Source of the DNA: Blasia pusilla
Lineage: Eukaryota
DNA: 64,000 nucleotides
Assembly: GCA_050084515.1 (NCBI GenBank)
Contig: CM114271.1
Span: forward strand, 18,662,001 to 18,726,000
Direction: 5' to 3'
Positions 8,401 through 64,000 of this stretch are shown piece after piece. A program made the position numbers and the translations under genes. The number at the start of each line of letters is the position of its first letter. Positions within the stretch are counted from its first letter, which is position 1. The notes beneath the pieces are model-generated. The model was not told the origin of the DNA. It did not search any database and saw only the letters and a list, made by a program, of their open reading frames with translations.

Positions 8401-9600
8401 GAGTTGGGGCCGAGTGAGGCCCATCCTCCAAAGTCCGTCTCCCATCCTCTTGGGGACAAAACCTCCTAACATGATCACCTCCACATGTCCAACATGACTG
8501 TCCTTGCTGCGGGGCAGCAAATGAAGGCAATGGTCTCTGGGCAAGTGTCCCTCTATGACCTAATTGAGGTCGTGTGTACCCCCCACGACTCCCACTACTA
8601 CTACCACTACCATTACTACGAGACTGTGAGGTGGACTGCTGAACATGAGAAGTAGTAGTTGTATCCCTACTGAATGCGGATGTCACCACTCTCTCCTCCA
8701 TCATGTTAAGCTCAATCTTCTCAGATCGAGCAAACACATGGGTCAATATGGGTGAATCATCACTCATAAGAGTAGCATCACGTATCCTGTGGCGCAACTC
8801 TTTTCCAAGATCCCCTACCAAAGCTGGACTACATGAGCCTGAGTCACACCATGGGTAACTGAAATCAAGCGTCGCATACGAGTGTATGCCTCACGAAGAC
8901 TCTCACCAGTCTTTCGCTCAAATTCCTGAAGACTCCTCAACTTCTCTCTCTTCACTCCTTGATAGTTCTTCTTCAACCTCTTGAAGAACTCTGCAACCAG
9001 GCTTAACGATGGTGGGGCACGAGTACCTCCACTAGTACCCCCACTGGTACCCCCACTCCGGCTCGTACTCGTACCACTCAACGTCGGGTTGGTTGGCATA
9101 GTAGGAGCACTACTACCAATACCACCATGGATGATAGACACCTAGCCTGAAGACCAATATTGTCTCCACGCCTCAATCTCAGCAACATGGTCCTTCCTAA
9201 ACTCATGGTAATCATCCATGGGTGGTCCCTCCAAGTGCTGAAACAACCCCTTCTAAGCCAAGAAGGGTGTAAACAACGTGGCGTTCCGAAATATCTATAT
9301 ATCACACCACGTATCAAAATCCTGAATGAAGTCCTCCAACTCAATGGTGCCCACTACACCCAAGTATCGTCGTGGGCCCTTCATGGCCCCATATATCCTG
9401 TCGATGTCCCGAATCAATGGAGCTGCAACACTCGATAACAACGTAGAAGACTCGGTGTTTGGAACACCCTCGTCCTCCTCTTCATCAACCGTCGGAAGTG
9501 GAAAAGGTAGCCAATACCTCAATCAACTCCGTGTAAAACCACCACTATCCGCACCACCGTCCCCAACCAGACCAACAAATAGCTCCGTGATGACCAACGC
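2417..9600 (-). pseudogene. A1 gag-pol: gag (~8300-9600), protease (~7150-7540), DNMT (~5790-6745), RT (~4560-5350), RNase H (~4130-4460), integrase (~2711-3700), PHD (2417-2560); multiple stops
   Basis: Motifs CWTCGGDHVRRFC, LLDSGAQP, LPFGLKNA, CYIDNILVFS, FQLHTDWS..GLGA, TDHQPLKWL, HEELGH..C..C, WSVDFAGP, ADGLAE and C4HC3 PHD are spread over split ORFs. Confidence 0.92.
5790..6745 (-). pseudogene. C5-cytosine DNA methyltransferase domain (DNMT3-like) within A1 pol
   Basis: Motif I VLDLFGGIS (~6705-6735), motif IV DLVIVGWPCEG (~6445-6482), motif VI LENVP, motif VIII HRPRLWWTNL, motifs IX-X ERERVMGF...VLGQAMD. Confidence 0.88.
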
Positions 9601-11108
9601 CAATGCCGCACCACCACCAAATCACCACCACTAAGTAACCAAGTGACGTCGATGTCGCTGTACTATTCTAGCTCTACTAGTTATGGGTGTAGGAAACCTA
9701 ACCTATCATCACCACAAGAAGCCTCCCACGGTCTACTGGTCATCACTCCAACCTCACTACCAGTAGCACACAGGAGTAAAACTATTCTGGAAATCAGCGT
9801 CAACCCTAACAATGGGCGCGCAAGCAAGAAGCAATGATGGAGGGGATCCAAACACAGGAAGTCCAACGACAACCCTCCAATCGCAAATGGAAATCAAGGT
9901 AACACAATCCACCAAACATGGCGCCCCCTGAATCTACAGAATCCACCACACAATTCTAACGCAATAGCTACTCTGCCGTTGGTCGATGACGTGCTACTCG
10001 CACTCGCAGTCCCTGAAAATATCACCTGCGTGGAGAGGCTACACCGTACTTTGTGCTAGAGATCCATCAACCAAAAACCCAAGATGCATAAAGCACCTAA
10101 CACATCTCCAAACAGCACCAAATGAGCTACACCAGTGTGTACACTAGCATAGTTAAGAACGCAGCAGTTAAGCGTCTTCCAGGCAGAATAGCCCAAAGAT
10201 GGGTGACCAGTTATGCAACACTCAACTCACAAATCCTGGATAAACTGCCTCACGCCCAAGCAGCCAAGCTTGCTTGCTTGCTCCTTGGTCCTAAATCCGC
10301 CTCTCACGCCCACTTGCCCCGAGCTACCACGAGTTGCCTCGAAACCTCGAAACGCCGAGAAATGCTCGGGACACGCCCCATTCGCCACGCTTTGCCATAC
10401 TTTGCTATGGAGAGAGGCCCAACGAGGGTGCCCCCAACGGGATAGGCATCTCCAAAAACGGACGAATCACCAACCAACCAGCCCCTCCGATCTGTTGTCC
10501 ACCATAGCCAGACCTTGAGCTAGTCCACTAAATTTAGATCAGCAATTACTCCACAAATCCTCAACCAAAAGTGAATCTGTTTAACCAGAATTCAATTGGC
10601 CACCATAGCTATCTCTCCACAAACAATCGGCTCCAACCTAGTTTTGTACTCCGAGTTAAAAAACAGACAAACTTGTTGTCCATACACCTCCAGAATCGCA
10701 AATCCGACAGCGCTTCCGCCCACACTCATGCACACAAAAATCCGCAACACTCCACAAACTCAAGCAGATAGCTTCACATGAGATCAAAATACAGGTAGCA
10801 ACAAGAACCTCTTACCCAATCTGGATGAACTTCAAAAGAGCTTCCGCACTCCAAGCTCTCCACATCACAAAACCGTCGAACATGAACCAGAATCTTCAAT
10901 CCTTGATAACTTCCAACTTCCTTAACAAAATCCGGCGATCTAAAGCGCGTTGGAAAGCTCTCATCAAGGCACTTCTTTTCCAATCAACCATGCACCAGAT
11001 TCATACCTCCAACATAGGCCACAAGCCACGATCATCCACGGCTGAGTACACAATCAGCCCTAACCAGATCGTACTGATCCACGATCGAAGCTACCATCGA
11101 TCTACTCT

Positions 11109-11119
11109 AGTTCTTTGAG
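11109..11119 (-). other. Non-tRNA primer-binding-site position of A1 (sense CTCAAAGAACT), putative self-priming site
   Basis: Lies directly after the 5' x repeat and is complementary to sense AGTTCTTTGAG inside x (plus 1932-1942; 11283-11293 has one mismatch). Confidence 0.7.
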
Positions 11120-11487
11120 TGAAATTCGTGGAAGACCTACTATCATAAAACACACATAGAATCACATACAATCGAGCCAAATCCAATCTATGATGGGAGA
11201 ATCCAGATCGAAGCTTGCGGGAACCACCATAGCCAAGGGCTCTACTCACTACCAAGGCTAACTCCCAACACAACAGGCTCAACCCAAAGAACTAACTGTT
11301 CTTTGAGTGCACTCCACACTATATCCTCTAACCTAAGAGCGAGCCCTACTGAAAAAGTCATCCTCAGTTGAGTAACCCCCAACCCTATGTATGAAACCGC
11401 ATCTCTACCTGGACACTACGGCCCTACATAAGGTATGGCCTCTGCTAGCACACTATACTCTACAACATAATACATATGGTCATGATA
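11120..11487 (-). repeat. A1 5' terminal repeat x (LTR-like, ~368 bp)
   Basis: Direct repeat of 1769-2136. Confidence 0.92.
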
Positions 11488-13385
11488 TGGGCTCCACCAC
11501 ATGACCAACAAGTAATAGTAGGCGGCGGCTGCTGAGCCGCATATGAAGGCGCAGGTCTTTGTGGCACGGCCTCCTGGTATCCTCCGTGAGCTCGTGGTGC
11601 CATAGTCGACATATCTCGGAGTCCACGTTGCTGCACAGGTGGTGTAGACAGTCGCGACTGGTCTCGCCCAGAACCCATGGTGGCTACGCTCTCCTCCGCC
11701 ATGTTGCGCTCAATGTTCTCGGTTGTCCTAAAATCATCTCTCAATGTAGGGGAGGTATTCATAAGAAGCACCCCCTCCCGCACCCGTATCCGTAGGGTCC
11801 GGTCCAGCGACGAGTGACGTTGATCAACCGGCGCAAGCGAGTGTAAGCCTCACGCAAACTCTCACTCTGGCGCCTCTGAAAGTCATGGATGCTCCGCAAT
11901 TTCTCCGTCCGTACCCCTTGGTAGCTCGCCCTCAACTCAACAGAGAACTCAACCACAGGGTTGAACTTGGGACGAACACGACTAGACGGTGCAAGTACTC
12001 CCGTGCAAGTGACCCCTACTAAAACGTCACTAGTGGAAGAGGAAGTAGCCTCTCCTGACTCCTCCTACTCCTCATCTAGGAACGGCTCCGTCCATGACAC
12101 ATAATGTGGGTCATAGTAGACCCTCCACGTCTCGATCTCACGTGCATATCTCTGAGAGAACTCATGGTAATCGTCCATGGGCGCCCCCTCTAAATGCTAG
12201 AACATACCGTTCCATGTTGTAAACGGGTTGAATTCTCTAGAGTTCTTGACCCTCTGGGAGTCGCACCAACTCCTAAAATCTGCTATGAAATCGTGTAACT
12301 CAATCGTGCCTACTACACCTAAAAACCTACGCGGTCCTCTACCCCGGTCATCCATCTCGTACGCCCAAGTGGTAGGACCACTCACAATGTATGGCGATGT
12401 GCTCACAAACTCCTCTACATCCTCCCCCTTGTCTGACGATGACAAAAAAGGAGGTCGAGGTGGTCCCTCACATGGACACCCTCGGAATCTCGCGCCACTC
12501 CGTGTAAAACCTGTAGAGCTACTCTTGGGTTCACCACCTCGCCTCTCAAAGTCCCGAACGGACTCCATGATGACCCTTGTGTTCCTCTCACCCGATCACT
12601 CTAAACCTCGTGAGTAATCCCTCAATCACTCATCCCAAACATGCGGCACTGGATCTACACTCTCCCTCTCCGCAACGTGTAACGTGCGGCAACACGCGGC
12701 GTGGTGCGGAAAATCGACTAGGCTATCATCTCATCGACAACCTACCCTCAACTCTGGACATCCCAAACAGGTCTATGTCCCCTAAACCACACACATAAAT
12801 GATGTTCTCAGCATCCACACAACCCAATATCCCCAAATAAACTACCCAAATCCCATAATCCCTCACGCGTGCAGGATAAAGGACCAGAATGGGTAACCTC
12901 AACATATGTCGATGTCGCTCCTCAGCAACTCCAAATCTCGACCCCAACTCGGTCATGGAGACAACTCCTCCAATCAGCAAGTCATCCTCCTCCCGTACAA
13001 ATGTTGCTCAAAACCCCTCGATAGACAGTGCGGTTTCACCGGAACGGTGCGGCGTTGCAGGCGGCACGGAACGGCTACGAACAGCACGGCCTTCGATGGT
13101 AGGATGCGGCACTCAAGAGCATACCCTCCTCAATCAGCAATAAACCCACACTCTGCTCCACAATGATGGTGCGGCTCCGTGATCGAGACGGTGCGGTGTG
13201 GCCACGAGCGGCACGGTGCGGCAATCGGCGGCGCGTTGCGGCTACGGGCGTCACGGCACGGTACTCGATCGTCGTTGAATGGCTACCAATCACAACATAG
13301 CAACATGAAATCAAAGCTCAAACACCATAACCGGAGGTCATCTACCATCATAGGTTGATGACGAAATTGTGATGGCGGCTGGGCC
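11488..13385 (-). mobile_element. Family-B element B1, right part (gag N-terminus and 5' leader), 5'-truncated
   Basis: Colinear with B2 20431-22350; ORF 12197-12568 reads GPRRFLGVVGTIELHDFIADFRSWCD; no x repeat follows. Confidence 0.87.
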
Positions 13386-13433
13386 CATGAGATGAGGAGC
13401 TGATGCCGCCTCATCTCAATTGCGGAGATGAGC

Positions 13434-14207
13434 TGTCGTGCACATACACATCGGTACACAACATACATCGCTCTCATCAAACACACACACAAACACACAC
13501 GATCCCATGCTAACTCATGGCATCCATACACAGAGGCGAGAAGTACCAAAATATCTCCAATAAAATAAGATCAAATCTCTCTGTACACCATCTCACACCA
13601 TAGCTCTCAAAGGTGCACGTGTACTCTCCCTCATGTCGAACCAAACCCACTCTCCTAATGAGAGGCTTGGGTTACACTCACAATGCAAGAAACCATAGCT
13701 CGGCCGCCTCATGCCAAGAGGTTCAACAAAGAGAGAATGAGCTCTCAAGCTCCCTCTCTTGGAGGTATACCCCTTTCCCTCTCCCAAGCCCTCTCAACGG
13801 TAACCTATGCTCGCAGGTCACCTCCTTGTCTCTTGACCTACTATAGCGGGTCAAGGGCCACTTTCCAAAGTAGAAAGTCAACTATCCCCAACATGGAAAC
13901 TTACCCTAATAGTAAGTTTCTCTATATGGCTCCAAATGAGCCGAAACGAAGGGGAAACCTGCTCTCTCAAGTTTCCCGGGGCGTCAGCAGGTCATTCTCG
14001 ACCTCCTGGGCCTGTCCTCCACTACTTGTGAAGATGCTTTGCTAGATCCTACCCATCTATTCTAACAGTCGTGACAATTGTCGTGCGCATACACATCGCT
14101 ATACAACATATATCGTTGTCATCGAACACACACACAAACACACACGATCCCATGCTAGCTCATGGCATCCATACATAGAGGCGAGAAGTACCAAAATATC
14201 TCCAATA
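13434..14207 (-). repeat. B2 3' terminal block: Y (13434-13562) + X (13561-14076) + AT + Y' (14079-14207)
   Basis: Y is repeated after GTGACA-AT-TGTCG; X is repeated at 23160-23649. Confidence 0.92.
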
Positions 14208-17300: not shown

Positions 17301-20300
17301 CGACAACTCAATGTGGATGCCCAGTCCCTTCAACGTACCCAAATCCTCCATGCTAAATGCAAAGTAGCTCCTATAACTCCTGAGGAACTGATGTATCCGG
17401 CGTCGCTCTCCTCTTGTCAACTTAGGGCCCATATTTGGCTTCCAAGTCTCCATTGTGACTACGGTAGGACTCTCCGGCGCGGGTATTGGTGGATGCTATG
17501 GTGCAATCCCATCTCAAACAACAACACTCGGCCGCTCTCCTGCAGCCAACTGCAAACTCTGATCTCCTCCATGTGCAGTGCCCAAAACCACGCTCGATGC
17601 TCTGGCTATCATCTCTTGGCGTACCTGCAAAACATCCCAAGAAGTCCAAGGGTGTCTCTCCCAATCTCCCCTGGTATGTAGATCTCCTCGAGTCTCGCCC
17701 CCAGCCACTGCCTCCACCGTCTTGGTAGGCATGGGGCTCACCAACGCAACCGTTGTGATCTGTCGCGATCTCCTACGACGTTGCTCAGCCACTTTCAAGT
17801 TGAGGATGGATGTCAAGCAATTCAGGTCCATTGCCTGACCCAAGACATGGCGTCGTGATGCCTCTGACACTGACGGTACTGTCGTCATTCCTATGGGAAA
17901 TCCCATCGCTCGCTCTCTCTCATCGGCGTTGGGCTCCACCAACCGTTGAACCTGGTCATCCCAAGCCAAGCAAGGACCGGCCTCCTTGTATGCATAGGAA
18001 GCGAGAAAACTCACAAACGTGGGCAAGGCTGCCCGCGGCCTGCCTACCGTGTTGACCATAGTCAACAGTGGTCGATTGTGCCTCACTGCCTGTGATCGAC
18101 GACTTGGATCTAGAATGGAATCCACTAACAAATGGGAGGGACGATCCACTCTCGCATACGCCCTCCGTAACACCGCGTGGGGCACCAAGTTGGTCCACCA
18201 TAGACGCGGGCAATGGGCTCTAGAACCTACACTCCCCCACATCCAAGAGCACTGTTGGGCCAATCCAGGCACGCACCTGGTGAGCAATCGTCACTACCCG
18301 TGCCCCGAGTCTCCTAATATCGCACATTCTCCAGAATGTAGGCTGGAGAATGAGACTGGTGCTCGTGCAACTTCTGTAAGACCCTCAACATCTCCCAAAA
18401 CAACCTGGACTGAGTGTCAGCCAATCCGCTGCCTCATCCAGCACTCGATTGGCCCTTACATGGCCAACCGGCAATGACCAAATCAATGGTTCCTACCCGC
18501 TCTAAGTCCTGTGCCCCCAACAACGAAATATCCCTCTGTAGGGAACTTTAATTTGGTACCCCTGTACCGCGGACGCAGAAATAAGTCGGGAAAACGTAGG
18601 CGTAACTGTGCCACATATCGTAGTGAGATGCGCCTTGCAACATCATCACTCTCCACATACAGGTACTGATGTACTGGCACTCATGGGTGCAAAACAACAG
18701 CTAACCGGGTTCTAATCCCTCCAAAGAGATCTAACACTCGAATACCCTTCTCCGAGGTACACCACACAATGGGTGTGGTATCCAAAGGTGTCATCGTAGC
18801 ACTTCATGCTACCTAGAGTTCCTCAGACCCGTCACGCTCCGGTGCAAAAGCCTCGCTCCACGCGGTCTGCACGTGTTCCTCTGCCAATCGTCAAAGCTCC
18901 TCAGTCGAGCCCCACAACAGCACCTCTCCTCCACGGAATGATGCGGCTACCATAACACTTCTCTCCATAGAAATTTCAGGAACGGGAATATCCTCTGGAT
19001 GGACATGGTCCTCAATCAAATCACTAGGCCAAGTGATGGCACTGCTAAATGGTGCTAAGGTCGCCATCTCTCCTGGCCGTTGGTCAATCACTGCACCTCT
19101 GAATCGAGCGGGTAATGAGCTTAGGCGCCCATCACCTGACTGCCATCCTAGTTTATAGGACACTGACCCCTCCTAATAATCCAGGGCAAACCCCATCGGG
19201 TATAACACTCATCCACCAACCAAGACGTCGTAGGACTTTGCATCAGTCACTATCGCCTTGGCTCACACCACGGACTCATCTGTAGGATGTCTCGGGCGAA
19301 TCCACACCACGACCTCCTCTCGGGTGATATAATGTGTGGTACTCACTCCATCCAAGGATGTCCGTATCCGGAATGGACAACGCTCCACATTGGCTCTCGT
19401 GAAGCCTAGTCCTCTGAATGACGCTTTCCCCAACATCAGGGGTTGCGCTCCTGAATCCAAAAGGACTAGCAGCCGCAGCGTGCCATGAATTTGACGTGCA
19501 CGGCCTGAGCATCTGCTCCAAGGGCAGGTCCATTACCTCCTTTGCAATCACCTCTGAATGTGATGCAGGAACTCCAAATCCACGCTCACATAGCATAGTG
19601 GCTAGCCAAAATGCCTCGGCGGACGTACCCCCCAACGTCATAACATCGGAAGCAGAAAATAAAGGAGTGCGGTACACAATGGTGGCTGCCCCCAACAACG
19701 TGATCGACATATGCCCCTCTTGAGTATCAAAAATAGGAGTCGTCGCACTTGCTTCTCCCATCGCCCTCCGTGCGTGCACACCAACAACATTACCAACTCT
19801 CCAGGAACTTTGATCAGGACCCATCGATGGGGTCCTCATCGCCTCGGACAACGTGATAGTTGAGGAAACCTAGTCTATTTGGTGGCTTCCCCTCATTGTG
19901 GATCCAACTCTGCGGCTGCTCCATGCGTCATGACTACGGCTTCCTCCATGTGGGCAACCCCGCACATCCAACCAGGATCCTCCATATCTCTGGCTGCTCC
20001 ATATAATGTCGATGCCACGGATCCGACATCGGGTAATCTCAATGCCATAGCGGCAATATGCTCCTGTAGCTGATGTATCTGAGCAGCCATCCTAGCCTCA
20101 CGCCCGACATCTCCCTTGACGTGTCTAGGTGGTGGGACTCTACCTCCTCCACGGGCAGCTCCACCACCCTGCCGGGCAACTCCAGTTCCTCGTCTCCCAA
20201 CGGGACCGCCAGGTGCACGATCTCTAGGCCCACCCGGACCGGCTACTTGCTCTGGTGCCCTCTCTGGCCCTCGGTCCGGACGTAACTCAGGATGTAAAAT

Positions 20301-21550
20301 GAAACACTTGGCGCGTGTATGACCATACCTCTGACAATAGTCACACTCATAACCTCCTGGTGTAGCACCATCTCCTCCTCCATGTTGAGTCATACATCCA
20401 TGACCCTGACAAGTGCAATCGCGCTGATGATGGGCTCCACCACATGACCAACAAGTAATAGTAGGCAGCTGCTGCTGAGCCGCATATGAAGGCGCAAATC
20501 TCTGTGGCACGGCCTCCTGGTATTCCACCTAAGCTCGTGGTGCCACAGCCGACCTATCTCGGAGTCCACGTTGCTGCACATGTAGTGCAGACAATCGTGA
20601 CTGCTCTCGCCCAGAACCCATGGTGGCTACGCTCTCCTCCGCCATGTTGCGCTCAATGTTCTCGGAGGTCCTAAAAATATCTCTCAATGTAGGGGAGGTG
20701 TTCATAAGAAGCACCCCTCCCGCACCCATGACCGCAGGGTCCGGTCCAGCATCGCGTACCATGACTGGATAGCCTGAGCCTCTGTCACCCCCTGAGTGAC
20801 GTTGATCAACCGGCGCAAGCGAGTGTAAGCCTCACGCAAACTCTCACCCTGGCACCTCTAGAAATCGTGGATGCTCCGCAACTTCTCTGTCCGTACCCCC
20901 AGGTAGCTCGCCCTCAACTCAGCAAAGAACTCAACCACAAGGTTGAACCTAAGACGCACCTGACTAGACGGTGCAACTGCTCCCATGTGAGTGACCCCTC
21001 CAAAAACGTCACTAGTGGAAGAGGAAGTAGCCTCTTCTGACTCCTCCTCCTCATCTAGGAACGGCTCCGTCTATGACACATAGTGTGGGTCATAGTAGAG
21101 TCGCCATGCCTCAATCTCTTGGGCATATATGTGGGAGAACTCATGGTAATCATCCATGGGTGCCTCCTCTAAATGCTGGAGCATACCATTCCATGTTGTA
21201 AATGGGTTGAACTCTGTAGAGTTCCTAGCCCGCTATGAGTCACACCAACTCCTAAACTCCGCAATGAAGTCGTGTAGCTCTATGGTGCCTACAGCACCCA
21301 AAAACCTACGCGGTCCTCTACCTCGGTCGTCCATCTCATACGCCCAACTAGTAGGACCACTCAATGTGTACGGTGGATCACTAACAAACTCCTCTACACG
21401 CTCCCCTTCGTCTGAAGACGACACAAAAGGAGATCGAGGTGGTCTTTCACTTGGAGATCCTCGAAACCTCGCATCACTACGGGTAAACCCTCTAGAGCTA
21501 CTCTCAGGTCCACTACCTTGCCTCTCAAAATCCTAAAAGGACGCCGTGAG
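14385..21550 (-). pseudogene. B2 gag-pol with DNMT (~17800-18745) and C-terminal PHD (~14390-14525)
   Basis: CWSCGGAHHQRDC and CDYCQRYGHTRAKC knuckles, DSGAQP, VIAGWPCKG (~18455-18480), SRAHCPRLWWTN, LGQAMD, CFIDDIIVFS, LHTDWSMLGLGA, CMLCGS..C..GWHMACL. Confidence 0.9.
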
Positions 21551-23144
21551 GGCCCTTGTGTCCCTCTCACCCGATCACTCTCAACCTCGCGAGTTATCCC
21601 TCAATCACTCATCCCAAACATGGGGCACTCGATCTACACTCTCCCTCTTCGAGACGTGTAACGTGCAGCAACAAGCGGCGTGGTGCGGCAAATCGACCAG
21701 GCTATCATCTCATCGACAACCTACTCTCAACTCCGGACATCCCACACAAGTCTATGTCCCCTAAACCACATACATAAATGATGCTCTTAGCATCCACACA
21801 CCCAATATCCCCAAATAAACTACCAAAATCCCAGAATCCCTCATGCGTGTAGGATAAAGGACCAGAATGGGTAACCTGAACTCATGTCGATGTCGCTCTT
21901 CAATAACTGCAAATCTCAACCCGAACTCGGTCATGGAGATAACTCCTCCAATCAGCAAGTCATAACCCTCCCATACAGACGCTGCTCAAAACTCTTCGGT
22001 TGACAGTGCGGAACGGTGCGGCGTTGCAGGCAGCACAGAACAGCTACGAACGGCACGGACCTCGATGGTGGGATGCGGCACTTGGCGGCATAACCTCCTC
22101 AATCAACAATAAACCCACACTCTGCTCCACAATGACAGTGCGGTTCCGTGATCGAGATGGTGCGGTGCGGCTAGAGCGGCACGGCGCGGAAATTGGCGGC
22201 GCGTTGCGGCTACGAGCGTCACGGCATGGTACTCGATCGTCGTCGAGCGGCTACCAATCACAACATAGCAGCATGAAATCAAAACTCAAACACCATAACC
22301 GGAGGTCATGTGCCATCACTTGTTGATGACAAAACTGTGATGACGGTGGCGGCCAAAAAAAAGTACGTGTTGGCAACGCAGGTCAGAGAATCAACGAACG
22401 TTGTGGAAGATCCTCCAATCCGTAACGGCGGCAATGGCAACCAAAGGGTGGACAACGGACCGTGGACCGTTGACGGTGACGGTTCATCGTTGATTGTGAT
22501 GGCCGACCGCTGAAGGTGATGGTTGACCATTGATGGTGAAATTTGACCATCGATGGTGGACGGTTCGCGATGACTATAACGGGGACGGTAGTTATCGGCA
22601 TGGCGGGTGGTTTAGGGTTTGAACAATTTAACCCTAAAAACCGCCTTGCAATGGCAATTTTGCAAGATTGACCATAACTTTTTGCTCGCAACTCCAAATT
22701 GCGTACTGTTTATTGCACAACGTGTACAGCTTCATGATCTACAACAACATTAAAAAATATTTGGAATTAGACATTCCAATAAAAATTATAGGGACTGTTG
22801 TAAATCCCAATGTCTCTTTCTCCGACACAAAATTTGGCAGCGCTTCCGCGCTAATTTCTCCCAACAAAAATGTAAAACCTATAAAAATACAAATCAGCAA
22901 GCTACATGGTGCTCTTGAGAGCATTGGCATGGGGAAATATGCCCCAATAATCAATCCCTATCAGAAATTGGGCAGCGCTTCCGCACGCCACTCTTCCATA
23001 CGAAAAATTGGCAAATGCAAAGAACAATCAAAGCAGCCCTTGCTCCGCTGAGCACTCCCATGAGCCGCTGAATGGGGAACATGGTCCCCAACGTGCAAAA
23101 ACAGCGAGTGACCAGTGGGCTCCCCCATGAAGCTCTCTCACTCT

Positions 23145-23160
23145 CTCATTCTCTCTTTGT
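23145..23160 (-). other. B2 PBS-position sequence (sense ACAAAGAGAGAATGAG), putative self-priming site
   Basis: Plus CTCATTCTCTCTTTGT is the exact reverse complement of ACAAAGAGAGAATGAG at 23319-23334 and 13726-13741 inside X. Confidence 0.72.
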
Positions 23161-23649
23161 AAAGTAAGATCAAATCTCTCTGTACACCATCTCACACCAT
23201 AGCTCTCAAAGGTGCACGTGCACTCTCCCTCATGTCAAACCAAACCCACTCTCCTAATGAGGGGCTTGGGTTACAATGCAAGGGACAATAGCTCGGCCAC
23301 CTCATGCCAAGAGGTTCAACAAAGAGAGAATGAGCTCTCAAGCTCCCTCACTTGGAGGTATACCCCCTTCCCTCTTCCAAGCCCTCTCAACGGTAACCTA
23401 TGCTCGCAGGTCACCTCCTTGGATCTTGACCTGCTATAGCGGGTGAAGGGCCACTTCCCAAAGTGGAAAGTCAACTATCCCTAACATGGAAAAATAACCG
23501 AAATAGTAAGTTTCTCAAACGAAGGGGAAACCTGCTCTCTTAGGTTTCCCGCGGCCTCAGCACGTCATTCTTGATCTCTTGGGCTTGTGCTCCACTATTT
23601 GTGAAGACGCTCTGCTAGATCCCACTGATCTATCCTAATAGTCGTGACA
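23160..23649 (-). repeat. B2 5' terminal repeat x (~490 bp)
   Basis: Direct repeat of 13561-14076, with small deletions. Confidence 0.9.
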
Positions 23650-24077
23650 GAGCGCACAACAATTGGGAGATGCGTGATGAGTTGCATTTCAGTGAGCATT
23701 CATGTTTGAGAGAGACAGATAGAGAGAGAAGGAGAGGGAAAGAGTGGGAATGTGCGGGCAAGAGGCTTTCAGATACATAAAAATATCCAAAGAGAATCTC
23801 AACTAAGTTTAAGTGGCAATAAGTGATTTTTATCCTTCATTGATAATTTCTCTAGAACAACATCAGTATACTTCTTGAAAGAAAAGTCACAAGTATTTCA
23901 CATGTTCCATGATTTCAAGATTCCGATTAAGAATTTTTTTGGATGTTGGGGAGAGAGGGAAAGGCCACTGTTCATTGCGCAACAAGTATTGAGTCCAGCT
24001 TCATCGCTACACTAGAGCTTATGTGATTACGGATGTAAGTGTCGATAAATGATATCAGAAAAACCAAGCAGAAAACG

Positions 24078-24660
24078 TGTCGTGCGAATCCACATCGTCA
24101 TACAACATACATCGCTGACATACCATACTCACATACGTACATAACATAGACAAGAGTATCCACAAATGCAAGTGTACCACAACTGAAATCTGTGAAAGAC
24201 CTACTGTCATAAAACACGTTTACAATCACATACAATCGAGCCAAACCCACTCCACGATGGGAGAATCTAGGTCGAAGCTTGTGGGAAACACCATAGCCAA
24301 GAGCTCTACTCACTACCAAGGCTAACTCCCAACGCAACAGGCTCAACTCAAAGAACTGACTGTTCTTTGAGTGCACTCCATCTTATATCCTCCAACCTAA
24401 GAGCGGGCCCTACTGGGAAACTCACCCCAAACTGAGTAACCCCCAACCCTATGTATGGAACCGCATCTCTACCAAGCCACTACGGTCCTACATAAGGAAT
24501 GGCCTCTACTAGCACACTATACTCTACGACATAATCCATATGGTCATGACAACTGTCGTGCGAATCCACATCGTCATACAACATACATTGCTGACATACC
24601 ATACTCACATACGTACATAACATAGACGAGAGTATCCACAAACGCAAGTGTACCACAACT
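24078..24660 (-). repeat. A2 3' terminal block: Y (24078-24184) + X (24184-24551) + AC + Y' (24554-24660)
   Basis: Same layout as A1. Confidence 0.93.
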
Positions 24661-24832
24661 CGCCCCCCTAATTGGCGGTTAGGTCCCTCTAACTCCCAGG
24701 TAGCCCTATACATCTACTACATGCTATACACCTTCTTGGGTGCCCGAATTAGAAGGCAGGGTGCTAGGTTGCCCCATCGTTAGTCGCACATGTGTAATCC
24801 ATATCATGCAAAGATCAAGTCATCTACCTCTC

Positions 24833-27800
24833 CTAAGTACATCGAGGACAAACCCACCTTCCAGTAGGAACGACATCCAAATGTGGAGTCAAACACATCA
24901 TGTGCCAACCCCTAGAACACCGATCACACACCAACATACGGGCTGCGTTACCAGCAGACCCACACAACATGCACCTCAAGCTAGCACGTATCATGGCTAA
25001 GCTTGGGTCAACAATACCATCCACATTTGGAAGATGACATGGCGCACAATTACGCACATGGTCCTTCCAAACAACTCCATCACGACCCTCCAACATGAGA
25101 ACTCCAGAAGCTAACACCTCGCGCACTCGTAAAATAGTGCGGCCTGCCGTCACATCCAACGTTGTCGGTGCAATCTGCTGCAAATAGACATAGTCCCGCA
25201 CATGGAACCTACGAATCGATGGTCGATAACCTCCACCCCAAATGGTTGCATACCGCAACGTATCCCTGTGTTGAGCAATGGCAAGATTCTCAAAGGTCGC
25301 CGGCATAACTCTCGAAAAGAGCTCCGCTCTTGAGAACATACCCTCATCGACATCTCTCGGGTCATCAAGGTTCACCACCTCACTAGACTCCCGACAATTC
25401 TCCGGCAAGTCCGGATCTCGCCATATAACAAAAATAAGGTGAGAAGGAAGCCAAGGATGCTTGGCGGATCGAACCTATACCCCATGGCTAACCATGGCAA
25501 TCGAATATCCGGTCTCCAAGATGCCCTTCAGAGGCCATACTTGCGCAATGGCCTCTTCACCGTCTGAACCACACACTCAGCCAAACCATCCGCCTCTGGA
25601 TGATCTCGAGACGTGGTCCGATGATCAATCAACGCCTTGTCACACAAGACCTGAAACTCACCCGAAAACTCTATACCTGGTCGGTCAAGACTTCAGGTGG
25701 TGCACCAAAATGACTAAGCACTCTATCCGAAACGCATACGCCGTTCCTCACTTGCCTTGTCCGTAATGCCACCAACTCAATCCACTTGGAGAAGTGCTCC
25801 ACCATCACCAACACATATCGATGATGTCGTACAGTCAACGGTAACGGTCCCGCAAAGTCCACACTCCAACGGTAATCCAACCCCATAATAGGCAAGGGGT
25901 GTAATTGTGGTGTAGGGGCATTAAATGATGCCCTCACCCGGTCACAAACCATACAACTTGATACCAACTGCTGCACCTGAGTATGCATGCCACGCCACCA
26001 ATACTCGCCAAGGAGTAAGCTATACGTACGCTTTACCCCAAAATGTCCCAACTCCTCATGGGCATGTCGCACAATGCGCTCTCTCTGAGCCAAATGTGGC
26101 ACTACTCGTACTCTACCATCCTCCCACACGCGGAGAATATGTGTTCCCTCCAATCGATACCTCTTAGCACGTTGAAGAACACGGTCTCGCTCCTTGGCAC
26201 TCACTATGCCGGCACCCCTGGTCTCAGAGGAACTCCAACACCAACGCATCATCATGAATATCACGCTGATCCGTACCACCATCTCCAACCTTAGGATCTC
26301 AAGGTGGCCATCTACCCTCGACTAGAGTAAGATATCATGTGGTCCTCCATACTAGAGTCCACTCTAACCAACATAAAAGGCGGATGCATGCCAACCTGGC
26401 ACCATCTCCTCATCAACCTCGCCATGCCATCTAGCCCCAATTGTATCCTCTTGGCTAGTACATGGGTTCCTACTCAACCCATCCAGGTTCAACTCCTTAT
26501 GAGGGAGATCAAGGTTGGCAACCTCACAGTCTATGTACCACCCGGAAGTCATACTCCTCTAAGATAAGAGCCCACCGTGCAAGCTTCCCCTGTAAGCTTG
26601 TCGGACTCCATCAACCACTTGAGCGGTTGGTGATCGAACCCAGGGTAAACGGGTGCCAAACAAGTAACACCTAAAGTGTGCCCACACCCACACTATTGCC
26701 AAGCACTCTCCCTCATTTGAACTATAGCGCGACTCGCTGCATTTTTTGAACGACTTGCATAGGCCACCACAAACTCCATGTGCTCATCATCATGTTGTGT
26801 CAACACCGCTCCAAGTCCCAACCTACTCCAATCGTGTGTAATGAAATGGGCGCCCTCGATAGGTCTCCTCAAGATAGGCGCCGCCACCAATGGGCCTTAA
26901 GCTCCACAAAGCTCTCTCCCTGATCATCTCCCAAAGTGCCACTCTTGATCTGATTTCAGCAATTGGTTCAAAGGCTTTGCCATAGCACTAAATCCCTTCA
27001 CATACCTCCGATAGTAGTTCGCCAATCCCATGAATGCTCGAACTCTACTCACATCTACCGGACGCGGAATAAGTGCAATAGCCTCCACCTTTGCTTGCTT
27101 TGAACTCCCAAACCACCTGGATAGATCACATGACCCAAGTACTCAACATCCTCATGGAAGAACTTACACTTTCCAAGATGCAAACGTAGACCATGAGCTT
27201 TCAACCGCTCAAACACCATCTGCAGATGTATCTGATGCTCCTCCACCGTGTTACTGAACACCAAGATATCATCAATGTAACACCAAACAAAATCCAACCC
27301 TGCTAGGATCCCGTCCATCACTCTTTGAAACTCGGCAGAGTTCATTCTTCAACCCAAAGGGTAAGAATTTCCACCTGGTACAAACAATCCTTGCCATGAG
27401 AGTTGACACCCCAAAATCTTTGTCTTGGCCTTGTCACTCTCCCGAATCGGCAATTGATGGTATCTCGCCGAAGATCCAAATCTTGAAAATCTTTGCTTGT
27501 CCCACCACATCAAAGATCTCTCAGTGTAGGCATGGCATACCTATCGGCCTTGGTTTGCCGATTGATAGGACGGTAATCTCCACACATCCGCCTATCCGTG
27601 TAGTTGCCATGCATATCCTTTTTAGCGAGCATGACAATGGCTCGATGCATACTCTCTATCGACAACTCCACTAATCCAGCCTCCAAAAGGTCCAACGTCC
27701 TACTCAATCAGGTCCCTCTCCATATCACTATATCGGTAGGGGACGACGGAAGATTGGCGTATCACTAGCCAAATCAATCCGTATACCGGGTCCAACTAGA

Positions 27801-30800
27801 GAACCCAACTCCTTCATGCTAAAGGCAAAACAACTCCTATAAGCACGTAGGAAGGCGTGTCAGCGTCGTTTCTCACCTCCCGTAAGCTTGGGCCCAAGTA
27901 ATGGCTCCCAAGTCTCCTCCTTTGGCATACTAGAGGGAGAGGCGATGCCATTGGTCGCTACGCAACCCCTCACAAGATGATACACCCTTAGGGCTACACC
28001 ATCATCCGAGCAAATAACTCCTCCACCAAAGATGAGCAACCAACTTCACATGCCCAGCCATTACATCCCATTTACTCCAAGGATGCAAAATACTACTCTC
28101 CTCCCCTAGCCGATGCCTCTACCGCCCGGTAGCCATCGAAAGCTCATTACAAGGGGTGGAAGACCCCTGAACATAGTCCGAAGTCGATTTGCTCGCCATA
28201 CCAAGACTCAAAATCCAAGTCAAACAATTCAGGTCCATGGCCTGACCCAACACATGACGTCGTGAAGCCTCGAAATAGAAGCAAACATTTGCCACGCTTG
28301 AGAGTAAATCCCCATCGCACGCTCTCTCTCATCAGCGTTAGGCTCCACCAACTGTCATACATGAGAATCCCATACAAGCCTCGGACCACCTTCCCTGTAG
28401 GCATGTGACGCGGGAAAACTCACAAATGTGGGTAGTGCCATCCTAGGCTGGCCCACACGGTTCACCACTGCCATGGGTGATCGATCAATAACCCTCACCA
28501 CTTGAGAAAGTCGCCCAGTATCCAAGATACTATCCAATGTAAGGCAGGATCCGCCAGACCGCATCATATGCTCGACGTAGAACCTCCCTAGGCAACAAGT
28601 TTGTCCACCACAAGCGTGGACAATGTGCACGCGAGCCAACTTGCGCTGCATCCAACAACACCGCTGGTCCAATCCAAGACCGCACCTCATGAACACTCGC
28701 CATCATCCGGGTCCGAGTGTCACCCAACAATAGAACATTCTCTAGAATGTAAGCTAGATCACGTGCCTGATGAACTGAAGATGTCGTAACACCCGTAACA
28801 TCTCCCAAAACAATCGAGACCTAGGGTCATGTAATCCGACCACGACCAACACGTGTATGACCACGACATGGCCATCCAAAGCAATCACCAAATCCACAGA
28901 CCGACCCTCTCAAGGTCCCTGCGCTCAACAATGCAATGTGTGATGGTAAAGCACGCTGGTACCCACGAATAGCGATGGCGGAAACAACTCAAGGTATCTC
29001 TCATCAATCGACCAATATGTCGGGATGAGACTCTCGGGTCGTCTCATCTCGCTCCACATACACGTATCTCCAAGACAGAATACCGCCTGCAACACACTGC
29101 TGACCAAACCCGGTGCTAATCCCACCAAAGAGATCTAACACACAAATACCCTCCGCGGATATTGCCATACAATGGGTGTAGTATCCAAAGGGGATAACCT
29201 AATGGACGAAGTAGGAGTCCGCCGTGGGGCCTCCTCTTCCTCATGAGGTATAATGACCTCACACCAAGCCTCTGCACTAGGCGTCGACCTCTGCCGTAGT
29301 GCACCGCCTGAACTCCAAAGTGGCACATCCAACGATGAGGATGCCCCTTTGCTGCAAAAATAGGGACCTCCTCTACCTCTCATCATGCAGGAGAATCCAT
29401 AGCGAAACATTACCCTCCAAAAGTCTCTGGCCAAGTGACTACTCCACTAAAACCACGACCCACAGATGCTAACATTTGTTGGGGAAGACCCTCCTGGTCG
29501 AGCCCCGAAACAAATCTCACAGAACTTGGCTCATACGTCCATCCCGGATGCCAACCAGGTCTATAAGACATTTGTCTCACCCAGTAATCCATCTGAAAAC
29601 CCATCGGGTACAACATCGCTACTCCAACTAGTACATCATACGACCCGGCTGATGTGACTACCGCAGATACTCCCAACCGGGAGCTATCGGTCGCATGATC
29701 CGGTCTCAACTGCATGCAGAAACTTCTCCCGTGTCATGAATTGAGACCTATCATTGGCTCCTCTGAGTGATGTTTGAATCTGGAATGGGCAAGGCTCAAG
29801 CTCTGACCTCCGAATACCCAAACCAATACATGCCGCCTTTCCCAACATCAAAGGTTGGGCACCGAGAGTCTAACAAGACTCTATCTAGTCTATACACTGT
29901 CTGTAGGACTCACCAATTGGAAGATCCCACTCGGTTGTCCAACATACATACACCGGTGTAAGCCTCTCACGATCAATGGTTGGCGGGCTGGTAATGCATC
30001 CATCTTCGCCGTTCGCCGCCAAGTAGCACGGTACTCAATGCTACACCGGACATAGAGGGTCGCTCCACCGCAACACCCTCATCCACCTCAATATGTGTAG
30101 CAGTAACACCCCCACGTTCACACAACGTGGCTGCTAACTGAAATACAAGAGCTAAGTCAACTCCTAAAGCCATCACTCCGTGGCGAAAACAATGGGGATC
30201 CCAACACCGAAGTTGCCATCCGCAATCTTGCATTGAATCTTGCATCCGTGTCTACTACACGCGATGTAGATGCCTCGATCCCCAATGTCGGCTCAATAGG
30301 TGCGTGAGGAACCATGGATGGAGTCCTAAGCACCTTAGACAACAAGAATGACTGGGAAGCCTAGCTCGCCTCCCACCTCACCCCTCTGTGGGTCCAACTC
30401 ACAAAGAGCACCGCGTGGCTCGACGCTTTCGAGTGGCTCCTCTCAGAATCGCGGTGATGCCTCAACCTTTTGTCTTTGCACTCGCCATATAAGAGAGATC
30501 ATCCCTCCATAAGAGTTGGAAGCCCTGCTCCCGAACTCCGATCTATCCGGATACCGACCATAGTAGCCAACTTCGCTCCAACCGCTCAATCCTGGCAGCC
30601 ATAGCTCACTCTGTCGTAGTGGTAGGGGTAGCCACCGTAGGCTCTCCAACCACTGGTCCACCTCTACCACCCCTACCACCTCTACCACCTCGGCCTCTCG
30701 GAGCTACTCCACCACGGCCACGGCCTAATCTCAACTCTGGATGAAGATCAAAGCAACGCTCTCGAGGATGACCTAGTCTCCCACAATGATCACACTGAGT

Positions 30801-32017
30801 TGGGGCCGACTGAGGCCCATCCTCCAAAGTCCGTCTCCCATCCTCTTGGGGACAAAACTTCCTAACATGATCACCTCCACATGTCCAACATGATTGTCCT
30901 TGCTGTGGGGCAGCAAATGAAGGCAATGGTCTCTGCACAAATGTCCCTCTAGGACTTGACTGAGGTCGCGTGTACCCCCCACGACTCCCACTACTACTAC
31001 CACCACCACTACTACGAGACTGTGAGGTGGGCGGCTAAACACGAGAAGTAGTAGTTGTATCCCTATTGAATGCGGATGTCACCACTCTCTCCTTCACCAT
31101 GTTAAGCTCAATCTTCTCAGATAGCGCAAAACACATGGGTCAATGTGGATGAATCATCACTCATAAGAGTAGCATCACGCACCCCTACGGCGCAAATCTC
31201 TGTCCAAGATCCCATACAAAATCGATCGCTCGATCCTCGCCACACCTGGTAATCTGAAATCAAGCGTCGATACGCGTGTATGCCTCACGAAGACTCTCAC
31301 CGAGTCTTTTCGCTCAAAGTCCTCAAGATTCCTCAACTTCTCCGTCTTCACTCCTTGATAGTTCTTCTTCAACCTCTTGAAGAACTCTGCAACCGGGCTG
31401 AACGATGGTGGGGCACTAGTACCTCCACTAGTACCTCCACTAGTACCTCCACTGGTACCCCCACTCCGGCTCGTACTCGTATCACTCAACGTCGGGCTGG
31501 CTGGCATAGTAGGAGCACTACTACCAATACCACCATGGGTGATAGACACTGACACCGGAGACCAATATTGTCTCCACGCCTCAATCTCAGCAACATGGTC
31601 TTTCCTAAACTCATGGTATTCATCCATGGGTGGTCCTTCCAAGTGCTGAAACAACCCCTTCCAAGCCAAGAAGGGTGTAAACAACGTGGCGTTCCGCAAC
31701 ATCTGCATATCACACCATGTATCAAACTCCTGCATGAAGTCCTCCAACTCAATGGTGCCCACTGCACCCGAGTATCATCGTGGGCCCTTCATGGCCCCAT
31801 ATCCACCGTCCATGTCCCAAATCAATGGAGCTGCAACACTCGATAACAACGTAGAAGACTCGGTGTTTGGAACACCCTCGTCCTCCTCTTCATCAACCTT
31901 CGGAAGTGGAAAAGGTAGCGGATACCTAAATCCACTCCGTGTGAAACCACCACTGTCCGCACCACGGTCCCCAACCAGACCACCCGACAGCTCCGTGATG
32001 ACCAACGCCGATTCCAC
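24833..32017 (-). pseudogene. A2 gag-pol with DNMT (~28210-29150) and intact PHD (24833-24975); many frameshifts
   Basis: CMLCGSAGNAARMLVCDRCSRGWHMMCLTPHLDVVPTGRWVCPRCT*; WCYIDDILVFS; YILENVLL; SRAHCPRLWWTN; CWTCGGDH and CDHCGRLGHPRERC. Confidence 0.9.
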
Positions 32018-33201
32018 ACCACCACCAAATTACCACCACCAAATAACCAAATGACGTCGATGTCGCTATACTATTCTAGCTCTACTAGCTATTGGTGTAG
32101 GCAACCTAATTTGTCATCACCACAAGAAGTCTCCCACAGTCTACTCATCATCCCTCCAGCCTCAATACCGGTAGCACACAGGAGTAACACTACTCTGGAA
32201 ATCAGCGTCAACCCTAACAATGGGTGCGCAAGCAAGAAGCACGATGGAGGGGATCCAAACACAGGAAGTCCAACGACAACCCTCCAATAGCAAATGGAAA
32301 TCAAGGTAACACAATCCACCAAACGTGGTGCCCTCTGAATCCACAAAATCCACCACACAATTCTAACGCAATAGCTACTCCGCCGCAGGTCGATGACGTG
32401 CTAGTCGAACTCGCAGCACCTGAAAATATCACCTGCATGGAGAGGCTACACCGTACTATGCGCTAGAGGTACATCAACCAAAAACCTGAGATGCATAAAC
32501 CACCTAACACATCTCCTAACAACATCAAATGAGCTACAACAGTCTGTACACTGGCATAGTTAAGAACTCAGCAGTTAAGCGTCCTCCAGGCATAATAGCC
32601 CAAAGATGGGTGACCAGTTATGCAAAACTCAAATCCGAAATCCTGCAAAAATTGCCTCACGCCCAAGCAAGCAAGCTTGCTTGCTTGCTCCTTACTCCGC
32701 CTCTCACGCCCACTCGCCCCGAGCTACCACGAGTTGCCTCGAAGCCTCGAAATGCCCCTATCGCCCCGTTCGCCATGCTTCGCTATGGAGAGAGCTCCAA
32801 CCAGGGCGCCCCCAACGGGATAGGCGTCTCCAACAATGAACGAGTCACCAACCAACCAGCCCCTCCGATCCGCTATCCACCATAGCCAGACCTTGAGCCG
32901 ATCTGGATGAACTTCAACAGAGCTTCCGCACTCCAAGCTCTCCACATCAGAAAACTGTCGAACACGAACCAGAATCTTCAATGCTTGATAACTTCCAACT
33001 CCCTTGACGAAATCCGGCGATCTATAGCGCGTTGGAAAGCTCTCAGCAAGGCGCTTCTTTCCCAACCAACCACGCACCTGATTCACACCTCCCACATAGG
33101 CAACAAGCCGCGAACATCCACGGCTGAGTACACAATCAGCCCTAACCAGATCCTACTGATATACAATCAAAGCTACCATCGATCTACTCCTGTTCTTTGA
33201 A

Positions 33202-33569
33202 TGAAATCTGTGAAAGACCTACTGTCATAAAACACGTTTACAATCACATACAATCGAGCCAAACCCACTCCACGATGGGAGAATCTAGGTTGAAGCTTGC
33301 GGGAAACACCATAGCCAAGAGCTCTACTCACTACCAAGGCTAACTCCCAACGAAACAGGCTCAACTCAAAGAATTGACTGTTCTTTGAGTGCACTCCACC
33401 TTATATCCTCCAACCTAAGAGCGGGTCCTACTGGGAAACTCACCCCCAACTGAGTAACCCCCAACCCTATGTATGGAACCGCATCTCTACCAAGCCACTA
33501 CGGTCCTACATAAGGAATGGCCTCTACTAGCACACTATACTCTACGACATAATCCGTATGGTCATGACA
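33202..33569 (-). repeat. A2 5' terminal repeat x
   Basis: About 8 substitutions in ~368 bp versus 24184-24551, counted by eye. Confidence 0.93.
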
Positions 33570-33957
33570 AACGAGTGAGATTTCAAAATTTCTCTCCCTC
33601 CACTTCAGTAATTTTGCTCGTTGATTTTGCTCTGATTGTTGTTGCAGTAATCTTGAGTGGAAGTTCATAAACCTGTGAAGATCCAAATCGGACAACTTGC
33701 TGCAGATTAAATATGTGTTTTTCGAGGGGGGAAGAGAGAGTGGGGTGGTCGGATTGATGTTATGGTTGTTGGAGCCCTTCCATCATGTGCGATGCTCATT
33801 TTCTCATGGTCTACTTATCTCCATCACAACATACAATTCACGTTCAATATTCTGGATTCATTGCCCAAAGATAATGCATTTTTGAGTAACAGCTTCTTAG
33901 GGATACCAATGAGGTACGGTAGATAGTTTTAGTGTCGAGGAGAGTTTCTTGGTTGAT

Positions 33958-54197: not shown

Positions 54198-54779
54198 TGT
54201 CGTGCAAATCCACATCGTCATACACATACATCGATGACATACCATACTCACATACATACATAACATAGATGAGAGCATCCACAAACACAAGAGTACCACA
54301 ACTGAAATCCGTGTAAGACCTACTATCATAAAATACGTATAGAATCACATACAATCAAGCCAAACCCACTCCACGATGGGAGAATCCAGGTCGAAGCTTG
54401 CGGGAACCACCATAGCCAAGAGCTCTACTCACTACCAAGGCTAACTCCCAACGTAATAGGCTCAACTCAAATAACTAATTGTTCTTTGAGTGCACTCCAC
54501 ACTATATCCTCCAACCTAAGAGCGGGCCCTACTGGAAAAGTCACCCTCAACTGAGTAACCCCCAACCCTATGTATGAAACCGCATCTCTACCTAGACACT
54601 ATGGCCCTACATAAGGAATGGCCTCTACTAGCACACTATACTCTACGACATAATCCGTATGGTCATGACAATTGTCGTGCGAATCCACATCGTCATACAA
54701 CATACATCGCTGACATACCATACTCACATACATACATAACATAGACGAGAGCATCCACAAACACAAGTGTACCACAACT
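54198..54779 (-). repeat. A3 3' terminal block: Y (54198-54303) + X (54303-54670) + AT + Y' (54673-54779)
   Basis: Same layout as A1 and A2. Confidence 0.93.
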
Positions 54780-54952
54780 CGCCCCCCTAACTGGCGGTTA
54801 GGTCCCTCTAACTCCCAGGTAGCCCTATACATCTACTACATGCTAAACACCTTCTTGGATGCACGAATCAGAAGGCCGGGTGCTAGGTTGCCCAATCGTT
54901 AGTCGCCCATCTGTAATCCATATCATGCAAAGATCAAGTCATCTACCTCTCC

Positions 54953-63596: not shown

Positions 63597-63962
63597 TGAA
63601 ATCCGTGAAAGACCTACTGTCATGAAACACGTAGAGAATCACATACAATCGAGCCAAACCCACTCCACGATGGGAGAATCTAGGTTGAAGCTTACGGGAA
63701 ACACCATAGCCAAGAGCTCTACTCACTACCAAGGCTAACTCCCAACGCAACAGGCTCAACTCAAAGAACTAAATGTTCTTTGGGTGCATTCCACTATATC
63801 CTCCAACCTAAGAGCGGGCCCTACTGGGAAAGTCAGCCCCAACTGAGTAACCCCCAACCCTATGTATGAAACCGCATCTCTACCTATCCACTACGGTCCT
63901 ACATAAGGTATGGCCTCTACTAGCACACTATACTCTACGACATAATCTGTATGGTCATGACA
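63597..63962 (-). repeat. A3 5' terminal repeat x, preceded on plus by the PBS-position sequence AGTTCTTTGAG (63586-63596)
   Basis: Repeat of 54303-54670; complementary ACTCAAAGAACT at 63759-63770. Confidence 0.92.
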
Positions 63963-64000
63963 CGTTTGAGAACTTGGCGATTACGCAACATTGGGATACG
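63963..64000 (+). mobile_element. Continuation of B3 integrase C-terminal region
   Basis: Reads (A)FENLAITQHWDT, matching FENLAIAQHRDT of the other copies. Confidence 0.88.

Follow-up and report, generated by a model that had tools for sequence, protein, structure and literature searches.

Self-priming of reverse transcription is established for Tf1 of S. pombe, in which the first 11 nt of the element's own RNA prime the minus strand and the 5' end of that RNA folds back over U5, and it has been proposed for the Tf1/sushi group of retrotransposons. It has also been predicted from sequence in the Tcn1 clade of moss and clubmoss and in the TAR lineage of Ty1/copia (Neumann et al. 2019, PMC6317226); these are the only two lineages that the main text of that survey names in this connection, the word "Marchantia" is absent from that text, and the LTR-FINDER filter described there demanded TG/CA at the LTR ends beside the duplication. 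A different arrangement of repeats characterizes the split-direct-repeat elements of the DIRS order (PAT-like elements, Ngaro, and TOC1 in Chlamydomonas), which read A1-internal-B1-A2-B2. Elements of the PAT and Ngaro type are described in PMC8969392 as encoding a tyrosine recombinase and making no target duplication. According to the description in PMC9940879, Gypsy-7a_cRei is an active PHD-finger Gypsy element of Chlamydomonas whose left LTR lacks the final 8 bp of the right one. Palindromic LTR-LTR junctions are reported to be cleaved by the integrases of HIV-1 (PMC1905944) and foamy virus (PMC1180852), and Ginger elements are reported to move by cut-and-paste through gypsy-type integrases, Ginger1 having TGTNR ends and 4-bp duplications (PMC2836005).

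The window analyzed here, a stretch of 64,000 nucleotides from contig CM114271.1 of Blasia pusilla, is a nest of decayed Ty3/gypsy retrotransposons in minus-strand sense, as detected by comparison of the window with itself, an open reading frame (ORF) scan and a Pfam scan. Domains found in its ORFs are reverse transcriptase, RNase H, H2C2 and rve integrase, with a PHD finger in element B and a weak match to gag; the pol order, reverse transcriptase, RNase H, then integrase with rve core and H2C2 finger, is that of Ty3/gypsy. Coordinates are collected in Table 1, where x is the repeat found at both ends of an element, u is a second repeat unit, found at the 3' end, and the tract is the part of x complementary to the predicted primer-binding site (PBS). 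An older B-like copy hosts the insertion of A1, and its halves (window positions 1-1661 and 11486-13378) are 85-88% identical to B (18905-20433 and 20425-22346); only 55 nt separate the 3' end of B from this split copy. A third B-like copy, on the plus strand at 46634-54117, is about 81% identical to B, is truncated on its 5' side and carries an internal tandem duplication of about 260-370 nt (49961-50983). Between the A1 PBS and the first weak gag signal (8815-9141) lies a leader of about 1.7 kb (9400-11108), in which no ORF has a Pfam match.

Table 1. Features of the retrotransposons in the window, in window coordinates.
Feature	Position	Strand	Remarks
Full-length element A1	11485 to 1663	minus (sense)	
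A1 5' x	11120-11485	minus	PBS ACTCAAAGAACT at 11109-11120; tract decayed to AGTTCTTTGGGT
A1 3' end	1663-2245	minus	internal u 2139-2245, spacer AT, x 1769-2137 (carries the tract, 1931-1942), terminal u 1663-1769
Full-length element B	23649 to 13434	minus (sense)	
B 5' repeat x	23161-23649	minus	TGTCACGACT...CTTACTTT[A]; 87% identity with B 3' x
B TATA-like box GGTATACC	23357-23364	minus	28 nt before the tract
B tract CTCATTCTCTCTTTGT in x	23319-23334	minus	predicted first 16 nt of the RNA, candidate self-primer
B predicted PBS ACAAAGAGAGAATGAG	23145-23160	minus	abuts the x end
B internal u	14079-14207	minus	129 nt, ends ...GCGCACGACA; spacer AT at 14077-14078
B 3' repeat x	13563-14076	minus	
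B terminal u	13434-13562	minus	93% identity with internal u; element ends ...GTGCACGACA
B target-site duplication GCTC	5' copy 23650-23653, 3' copy 13430-13433	minus	
Full-length element A3	33569 to 24078	minus (sense)	
A3 5' x	33202-33569	minus	97.8% identity with A3 3' x; decayed PBS TTCAAAGAACA just downstream
A3 3' end	24078-24660	minus	internal u 24554-24660, spacer GT, x 24184-24552, terminal u 24078-24184
A3 target-site duplication CGTT	33570-33573 and 24074-24077		
Family C, 3' fragment only	44808-45582	minus	PPT-like AGGGGGACG, u, spacer AC, x, terminal u
Full-length element A2	63962 to 54198	minus (sense)	
A2 5' x	63597-63962	minus	tract 63759-63770, PBS 63586-63597
A2 3' end	54198-54779	minus	internal u 54673-54779, spacer AT, x 54303-54670, terminal u 54198-54303
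A2 target-site duplication AACG	63963-63966 and 54194-54197		

The proteins most similar to those of the elements are from liverworts (Calypogeia, Riccia, Marchantia), Sphagnum, Klebsormidium and green algae, and the lineage is common to liverworts, mosses, streptophyte algae and green algae. A PHD finger (PF00628) follows the integrase core in many relatives and no chromodomain occurs, according to the Pfam lists of the 120 relatives listed; the C-terminus of the B integrase is likewise a PHD finger. Base composition is asymmetric over the elements (1-34000 and 54000-64000), with a GC skew of about -0.24 and an AT skew of about +0.12 on the plus strand, so that the sense strand of the elements is rich in G and T. 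This is unusual, as retroelements are generally A-rich on the sense strand.

The initial annotation had reported that no PBS of the TGG type follows x, and that the sequence next to x is instead complementary to a tract inside x. The first point holds for the families checked, window elements and relatives included. As for the second, all of the coordinates given are right when read on the minus (sense) strand. The inverted repeat of B is perfect over exactly 16 nt and extends no further (Table 1), and in family A ACTCAAAGAACT, present at the PBS of both A1 and A2, matches AGTTCTTTGAGT, present in the 3' x of A1 and the 5' x of A2, over 12 nt. The end of x was set independently of this pairing, from the point at which the 5' x, running into the PBS, and the 3' x, running into different sequence, cease to match; complementarity in the window elements begins 0-2 nt from that end. 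As a chance control, other windows of the same element, 844-849 per element, were tested against x. For B the observed 16 nt compares with a control maximum of 10, none of the controls reaching 16; for A1 the values are 10 observed and 9 at most in controls, none reaching 10. One control equals the 12 nt of A2, and 39 reach the 8 nt of A3, a decayed copy.

Family A also carries the PBS sequence CACTCAAAGAAC within x, 4-5 nt upstream of the tract (11283-11313, 1931-1961 and equivalent positions), and this internal copy together with the tract yields a local 11-bp hairpin at the predicted start. At the same place family C has the hairpin GATGGCTT-TCTC-AAGCCATC (45121-45160), and B has a 5-bp palindrome only. 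By analogy with A, the pairing tract of family C, which the initial annotation had taken to be ATCTTTCTCATG, might be the hairpin arm AAGCCATC; the PBS word predicted from the former occurs after no x in the window or in the 80 loci described below, which hold no 5' end of family C.

Relatives were obtained by integrase alignment, 80 loci on metagenome contigs being recovered with identities of 40-85%; among these, L004/L021, L045/L050, L073/L074, L065/L067 and L039/L043 are loci assembled twice. Eighteen 5' ends were compared, from 14 loci with a 5' x and the four window elements. An exact complement of at least 10 nt lies at the boundary in 11 of the 18, measuring 17 nt in L007 and L003, 16 in B, 15 in L037 and L064, 12 in A2, 11 in L050, and 10 in each of A1, L020, L006 and L061. 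In nine of the 18 the observed length exceeds that of every one of the 844-849 control windows taken from the element concerned. The seven that do not rise above their controls (A3, L073, L067, L002, L053, L058 and L077) differ from intact relatives mostly by transitions, and we read their failure as apparent decay by transitions.

Three unrelated sequence classes hold the pairing at the same place: AGTTCTTTGAG with CTCAAAGAACT, CTCATTCTCTCTTTGT with ACAAAGAGAGAATGAG, and AGTTTTTCTAGAATT with AATTCTAGAAAAACT. Families A, B and C share a conserved TTGARCC after the variable tract, and A and B show the same register from two independent anchors, the x end and TTGARCC. Because MAFFT put the B PBS out of register, covariation between A and B was counted by hand from these two anchors; six of the 12 pairs carry compensatory changes, with both partners altered. 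The argument in the initial annotation that complementarity kept with different sequences speaks against chance is supported by the controls, by the three classes and by the compensatory changes.

The tract lies 28-32 nt after a TATA-like box, much as had been claimed, although the box assigned to A2, GATATAAG, is in fact the A3 version. The first T of the box stands 28 nt before the tract in A2 (GGATATAG) and in B (GGTATACC), and 32 nt before it in family C, where TATAAG precedes ATCTTTCTCATG, and in elements of the L037 type, which have the canonical TATAAAAG. RNA reads from expressed B-like copies have CATATATATCC at the place of the B box. When the predicted RNA stretch that begins with the tract and ends with the PBS was folded by minimum free energy, the 5' tract closed on the PBS in six of seven elements, L020 being the exception. 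The RNAalifold consensus of seven A and B sequences, with B mis-registered by MAFFT, closes in the same way.

RNA from three raw stranded runs with the same species label, plus one contig set, was compared with positions 22700-33700 at 88% likeness, depth being taken in bins of 367 nt. First mates fall almost everywhere on the plus strand in the three runs, which, as in usual stranded libraries, indicates minus-sense RNA; such sense reads cover A3 and the 5' part of B. In run X21, depth over A3 is about 75-160 in the 3' two thirds and about 25 near the 5' end; it is 59 in the bin of the A3 3' x and 1.3 in the bin that holds most of the terminal u plus flank, so few transcripts reach the terminal u. 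Over B, depth is 55 in the bin of the predicted 5' part of the RNA against 10.6 in the bin of the upstream part of x. At this 367-nt resolution the reads are compatible with the predicted start. On the side where they are expected, molecule ends pile up only at 33344, and there weakly (5 of 9, in a single run); this position is 31 nt downstream of the start predicted for A3. Two observations count against the predicted starts. In each of the three runs, many first mates have their first base at 33408 (24 of 48, 16 of 57 and 15 of 46), at the border of the TATA-like box and some 33 nt upstream of the A3 start. Should 33408 be a poly(A) site, most RNAs would have a very short terminal repeat R or none, and the first strand transfer would then need explaining. 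Across the predicted B start run 53 B-like reads, with a loose end at 23349; such read-across is expected for RNA from the 3' LTR or for read-through RNA, yet lends no support.

The same reads show rearranged forms. Some join 25223 to 31727, a skip of 6.5 kb (6, 7 and 6 reads in the three runs), and others have a 39-nt stretch in place of 25297-26319 (14-25 reads); both point to expressed family members that are internally deleted or variant. Reads that join x position ~322 to ~34 (24230/24518 and 33536; 6 + 6 reads, 4 nt shared) reflect either a tandem or rearranged x in an expressed copy or a template-switch product.

We consider it likely, from the position and covariation of the pairing, that the RNA of these elements starts at the tract, that the 5' end of this RNA anneals to the PBS and, once cut off, serves as the minus-strand primer, and that minus-strand DNA is made from the x end. 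The steps would be as follows. The RNA would start about 30 nt downstream of the TATA box inside x, near 23334 in B and near 11294, 33375 and 63770 in A; its first 12-17 nt would be complementary to the sequence directly after x; the 5' end would fold back onto the PBS; and the element's RNase H would free the 5' oligonucleotide, which would then prime minus-strand DNA. With the minus-strand primer site at the PBS, x would end exactly there. The suggestion of self-priming in the initial annotation has gained from the relatives, in which tract and PBS remain complementary although their sequences differ, with the pairing again at the x boundary and a TATA box upstream of the tract.

A primer acting in trans, a small RNA cut from the LTR transcripts of other copies and bound to the sequence after x, would leave the same complementarity and covariation, and its source is at hand in families that are transcribed and exist in many copies. 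It is nonetheless an unlikely explanation, because the tract occupies the place expected of the RNA 5' end itself, 28-32 nt after TATA, and because the folds close in cis. The pairing could instead be an RNA structure for packaging, dimerization or translation control, or a repeat used in strand transfer, with another primer doing the priming. We give this reading a similarly low probability: a primer predicts pairing 0-2 nt from the independently set x end, as seen in every family, whereas a packaging helix need not lie there, and there is no other candidate PBS. The repetition of the A PBS in x, with its local hairpin, and the similar hairpin at the same place in C would fit such a structure, as would RNA 3' ends that seem to fall near the tract region, but the hairpin is absent in B. 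That the PBS matches an internal fragment of a host tRNA, or another host RNA, with the match to x secondary, is very improbable; half-tRNA primers are described for plant Ty1/copia lineages in PMC6317226, but three unrelated PBS sequences here each match their own x and none starts with TGG, so that one would have to assume three host RNAs and as many coincidences. A tRNA scan returned no gene for the window or for the 755 kb of the loci. Chance inverted repeats in low-complexity LTR sequence are scarcely credible, even with a CT-rich tract in B and seven of 18 copies failing to beat their controls, because in nine of the 18 the observed match is longer than any in about 845 control windows, its position is constant, and it persists between families whose integrases share 41-80% identity.

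Self-priming from the RNA 5' end, our preferred reading, would account for one boundary of a terminal repeat system of which x is only a part; x is not a full LTR, a point missed in the initial annotation. All four window elements end in u-NN-x-u on the 3' side and have x alone on the 5' side. The layout x-PBS...PPT-u-GC-x-u (PPT, polypurine tract) occurs in all four, and u-x-u follows the integrase gene in 23 of the 80 loci, which span families at 41-80% integrase identity. Two equal LTRs at both termini beside a target duplication, as expected of Ty3/gypsy elements, are therefore not what these elements have. Their outer ends do agree with Ty3/gypsy in having TG...CA termini and a short target duplication. 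Specifically, x starts with TGTCAYGAC... and u ends in ...GCACGACA, together the integrase-type TGTCAYG...CRYGACA. In 14 complete elements, 4-bp duplications at the x start and the u end are perfect in eight (CGTT, AACG and GCTC in the window; AAGG, AATC, ACAA, TACA and GTAT in the loci), one letter off in four and lacking in two.

The unit u is 107 nt long in A and 129 nt in B. A G-run polypurine tract stands directly before the internal u (ctgggggggg before ATACATG; aggggggcgag before TTGTGG), with no clear one in B. The spacer between internal u and x is always 2 nt, GC, AT, GT or AC. As these spacers differ by one or two transitions and CAGCTG contains two CHG sites, we infer an ancestral palindrome, GACA-GC-TGTC. 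The palindrome at u-GC-x, GACAGCTGTC, is conserved, and the same palindrome lies 3' of the integrase gene in the further lineages L017, L029 and L035.

At the terminal joint of x and u, the base next to the PBS is set against the base next to the polypurine tract, and the joint looks like joined termini of reverse transcription. It reads ...TTCAAT/ATACATG in most copies of the L037 type and is 1-2 letters shorter in L031, L033, L034 and L038; in L005, x has lost about 22 nt at the joint and CCGAG, resembling the tract end, stands before u. Because the joint varies between copies, we read it as made anew at each insertion. In the L037 type, 1-3 nt at the joint equal the first letters of the PBS (A, AT or AAT), which is what variable cutting or retention of the primer would leave.

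A form with a single u (x...u, then unrelated sequence) is as frequent as u-x-u, being found in another 23 of the 80 loci, duplicates included and L026 and L072 doubtful. Complete examples have the duplication TACA in L002, GTAT in L077, one with a letter off in L064 and none in L053. This form could be a direct product, made by an integrase that takes one end from the left palindrome and the other from the right, or could arise later by a deletion through recombination between the two copies of u. None of the 18 5' ends shows the mirror form x-u-x-PBS: at the 14 loci, the 300 nt to each side of the 5' end are free of u, and in the window no u precedes any of the four 5' ends.

Two simpler schemes were rejected. 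An LTR consisting of x+u or u+x at both ends is ruled out by the junctions and duplications, and random cutting of a 2-LTR circle, as the sole route, predicts copies of the form x-u-x-PBS, absent as just described. A scan of 16 ORFs revealed no tyrosine recombinase domain, an absence that carries little weight because the copies are decayed. A literature search, with supplements and the REM1 paper outside it, gave no account of x...u-x-u in elements with an integrase, and an earlier description may exist.

A route to the permuted layout can be put forward tentatively. Plus-strand DNA would start at the G-run polypurine tract upstream of u, which would make the LTR of reverse transcription u-GC-x; since the integrase-type ends lie elsewhere, genomic copies would be circular permutations. 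The integrase would recognize and cut the internal palindrome GACA-GC-TGTC of the left LTR, not the DNA termini, and would do so early, while only the left LTR is double-stranded. The plus strand would then reach the right x end and switch end-to-end onto the released u piece, or the host would join the ends, and the product in either case would be x...u-GC-x-u, the right end having gained a u. Such an early cut at the left palindrome would explain the missing mirror form. We hold this route, from plus-strand start at u to the gain of u at the right end, to be possible rather than probable. Much the same caution applies to the broader proposal that circular permutation of the reverse-transcription product is how a whole integrase-bearing lineage, present in liverworts, mosses and streptophyte algae, replicates, with self-priming and with a DDE integrase making the split-direct-repeat layout hitherto associated with tyrosine recombinases; this too we hold to be possible rather than probable. 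On our reading, self-priming here would be a known mechanism in a new lineage, and the permuted architecture is the more unusual result.

Clean covariation supports self-priming in a different and widespread lineage with a PHD-finger integrase, which suggests for it either several origins or a greater age than had been supposed. Annotation programs that rely on a tRNA PBS and on equal LTRs beside the duplication would miss or mis-bound the elements that fill this window, and the TG/CA filter used with LTR-FINDER in PMC6317226, as described there, should miss the permuted layout. If the model is true, x...u-x-u is a natural case of a retroviral-type integrase acting on an internal palindrome, and the layout links LTR retrotransposons, DIRS-like elements, Ginger transposons and the cleavage of 2-LTR junctions by retroviral integrases. 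The families are still transcribed, so the model of the permuted layout is testable.

As in Tf1, Tf2 and the Tf1/sushi group, the PBS of these elements directly follows the LTR sequence, is complementary to the start of the RNA (here a predicted start), and is not of the tRNA type. A complement of at least 11 nt lies directly 3' of the 5' LTR sequence, measuring 16 nt in B, 12 in A and 15-17 in relatives, and the pairing of 12-17 nt compares with 11 nt in Tf1. The elements differ from Tf1/sushi in having a PHD finger and no chromodomain at the integrase C-terminus, and in combining a 4-bp duplication with the permuted repeats x...u-x-u. Because of the PHD finger and the lack of a chromodomain, we count them outside Tf1/sushi, set apart by domain content; the label "Tf1-like" given initially therefore suits the mechanism and not the membership. 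Like Tcn1 and TAR as treated in PMC6317226, they are a case of self-priming predicted from sequence in non-seed plants. With Gypsy-7a_cRei, as described in PMC9940879, they share membership in Gypsy, a PHD finger and an asymmetry of the LTRs; the extra right-hand piece is 98-181 nt here against 8 bp there, and is present also upstream of the 3' x. The 8-bp asymmetry may be the same phenomenon in miniature. The internal palindrome of two abutted ends resembles the LTR-LTR junctions reported for HIV-1 and foamy virus, its cleavage being inferred in our case, but unlike those junctions it is a permanent, transcribed part of the element and has a 2-bp center. The repeat topology is identical to that of the split direct repeats of the DIRS order, with x as A and u as B, and here too the internal B1/A2 joint mirrors the joint of the element's two ends; the elements described here differ from that order in their DDE integrase (rve, H2C2), their TG...CA ends and their 4-bp duplications.
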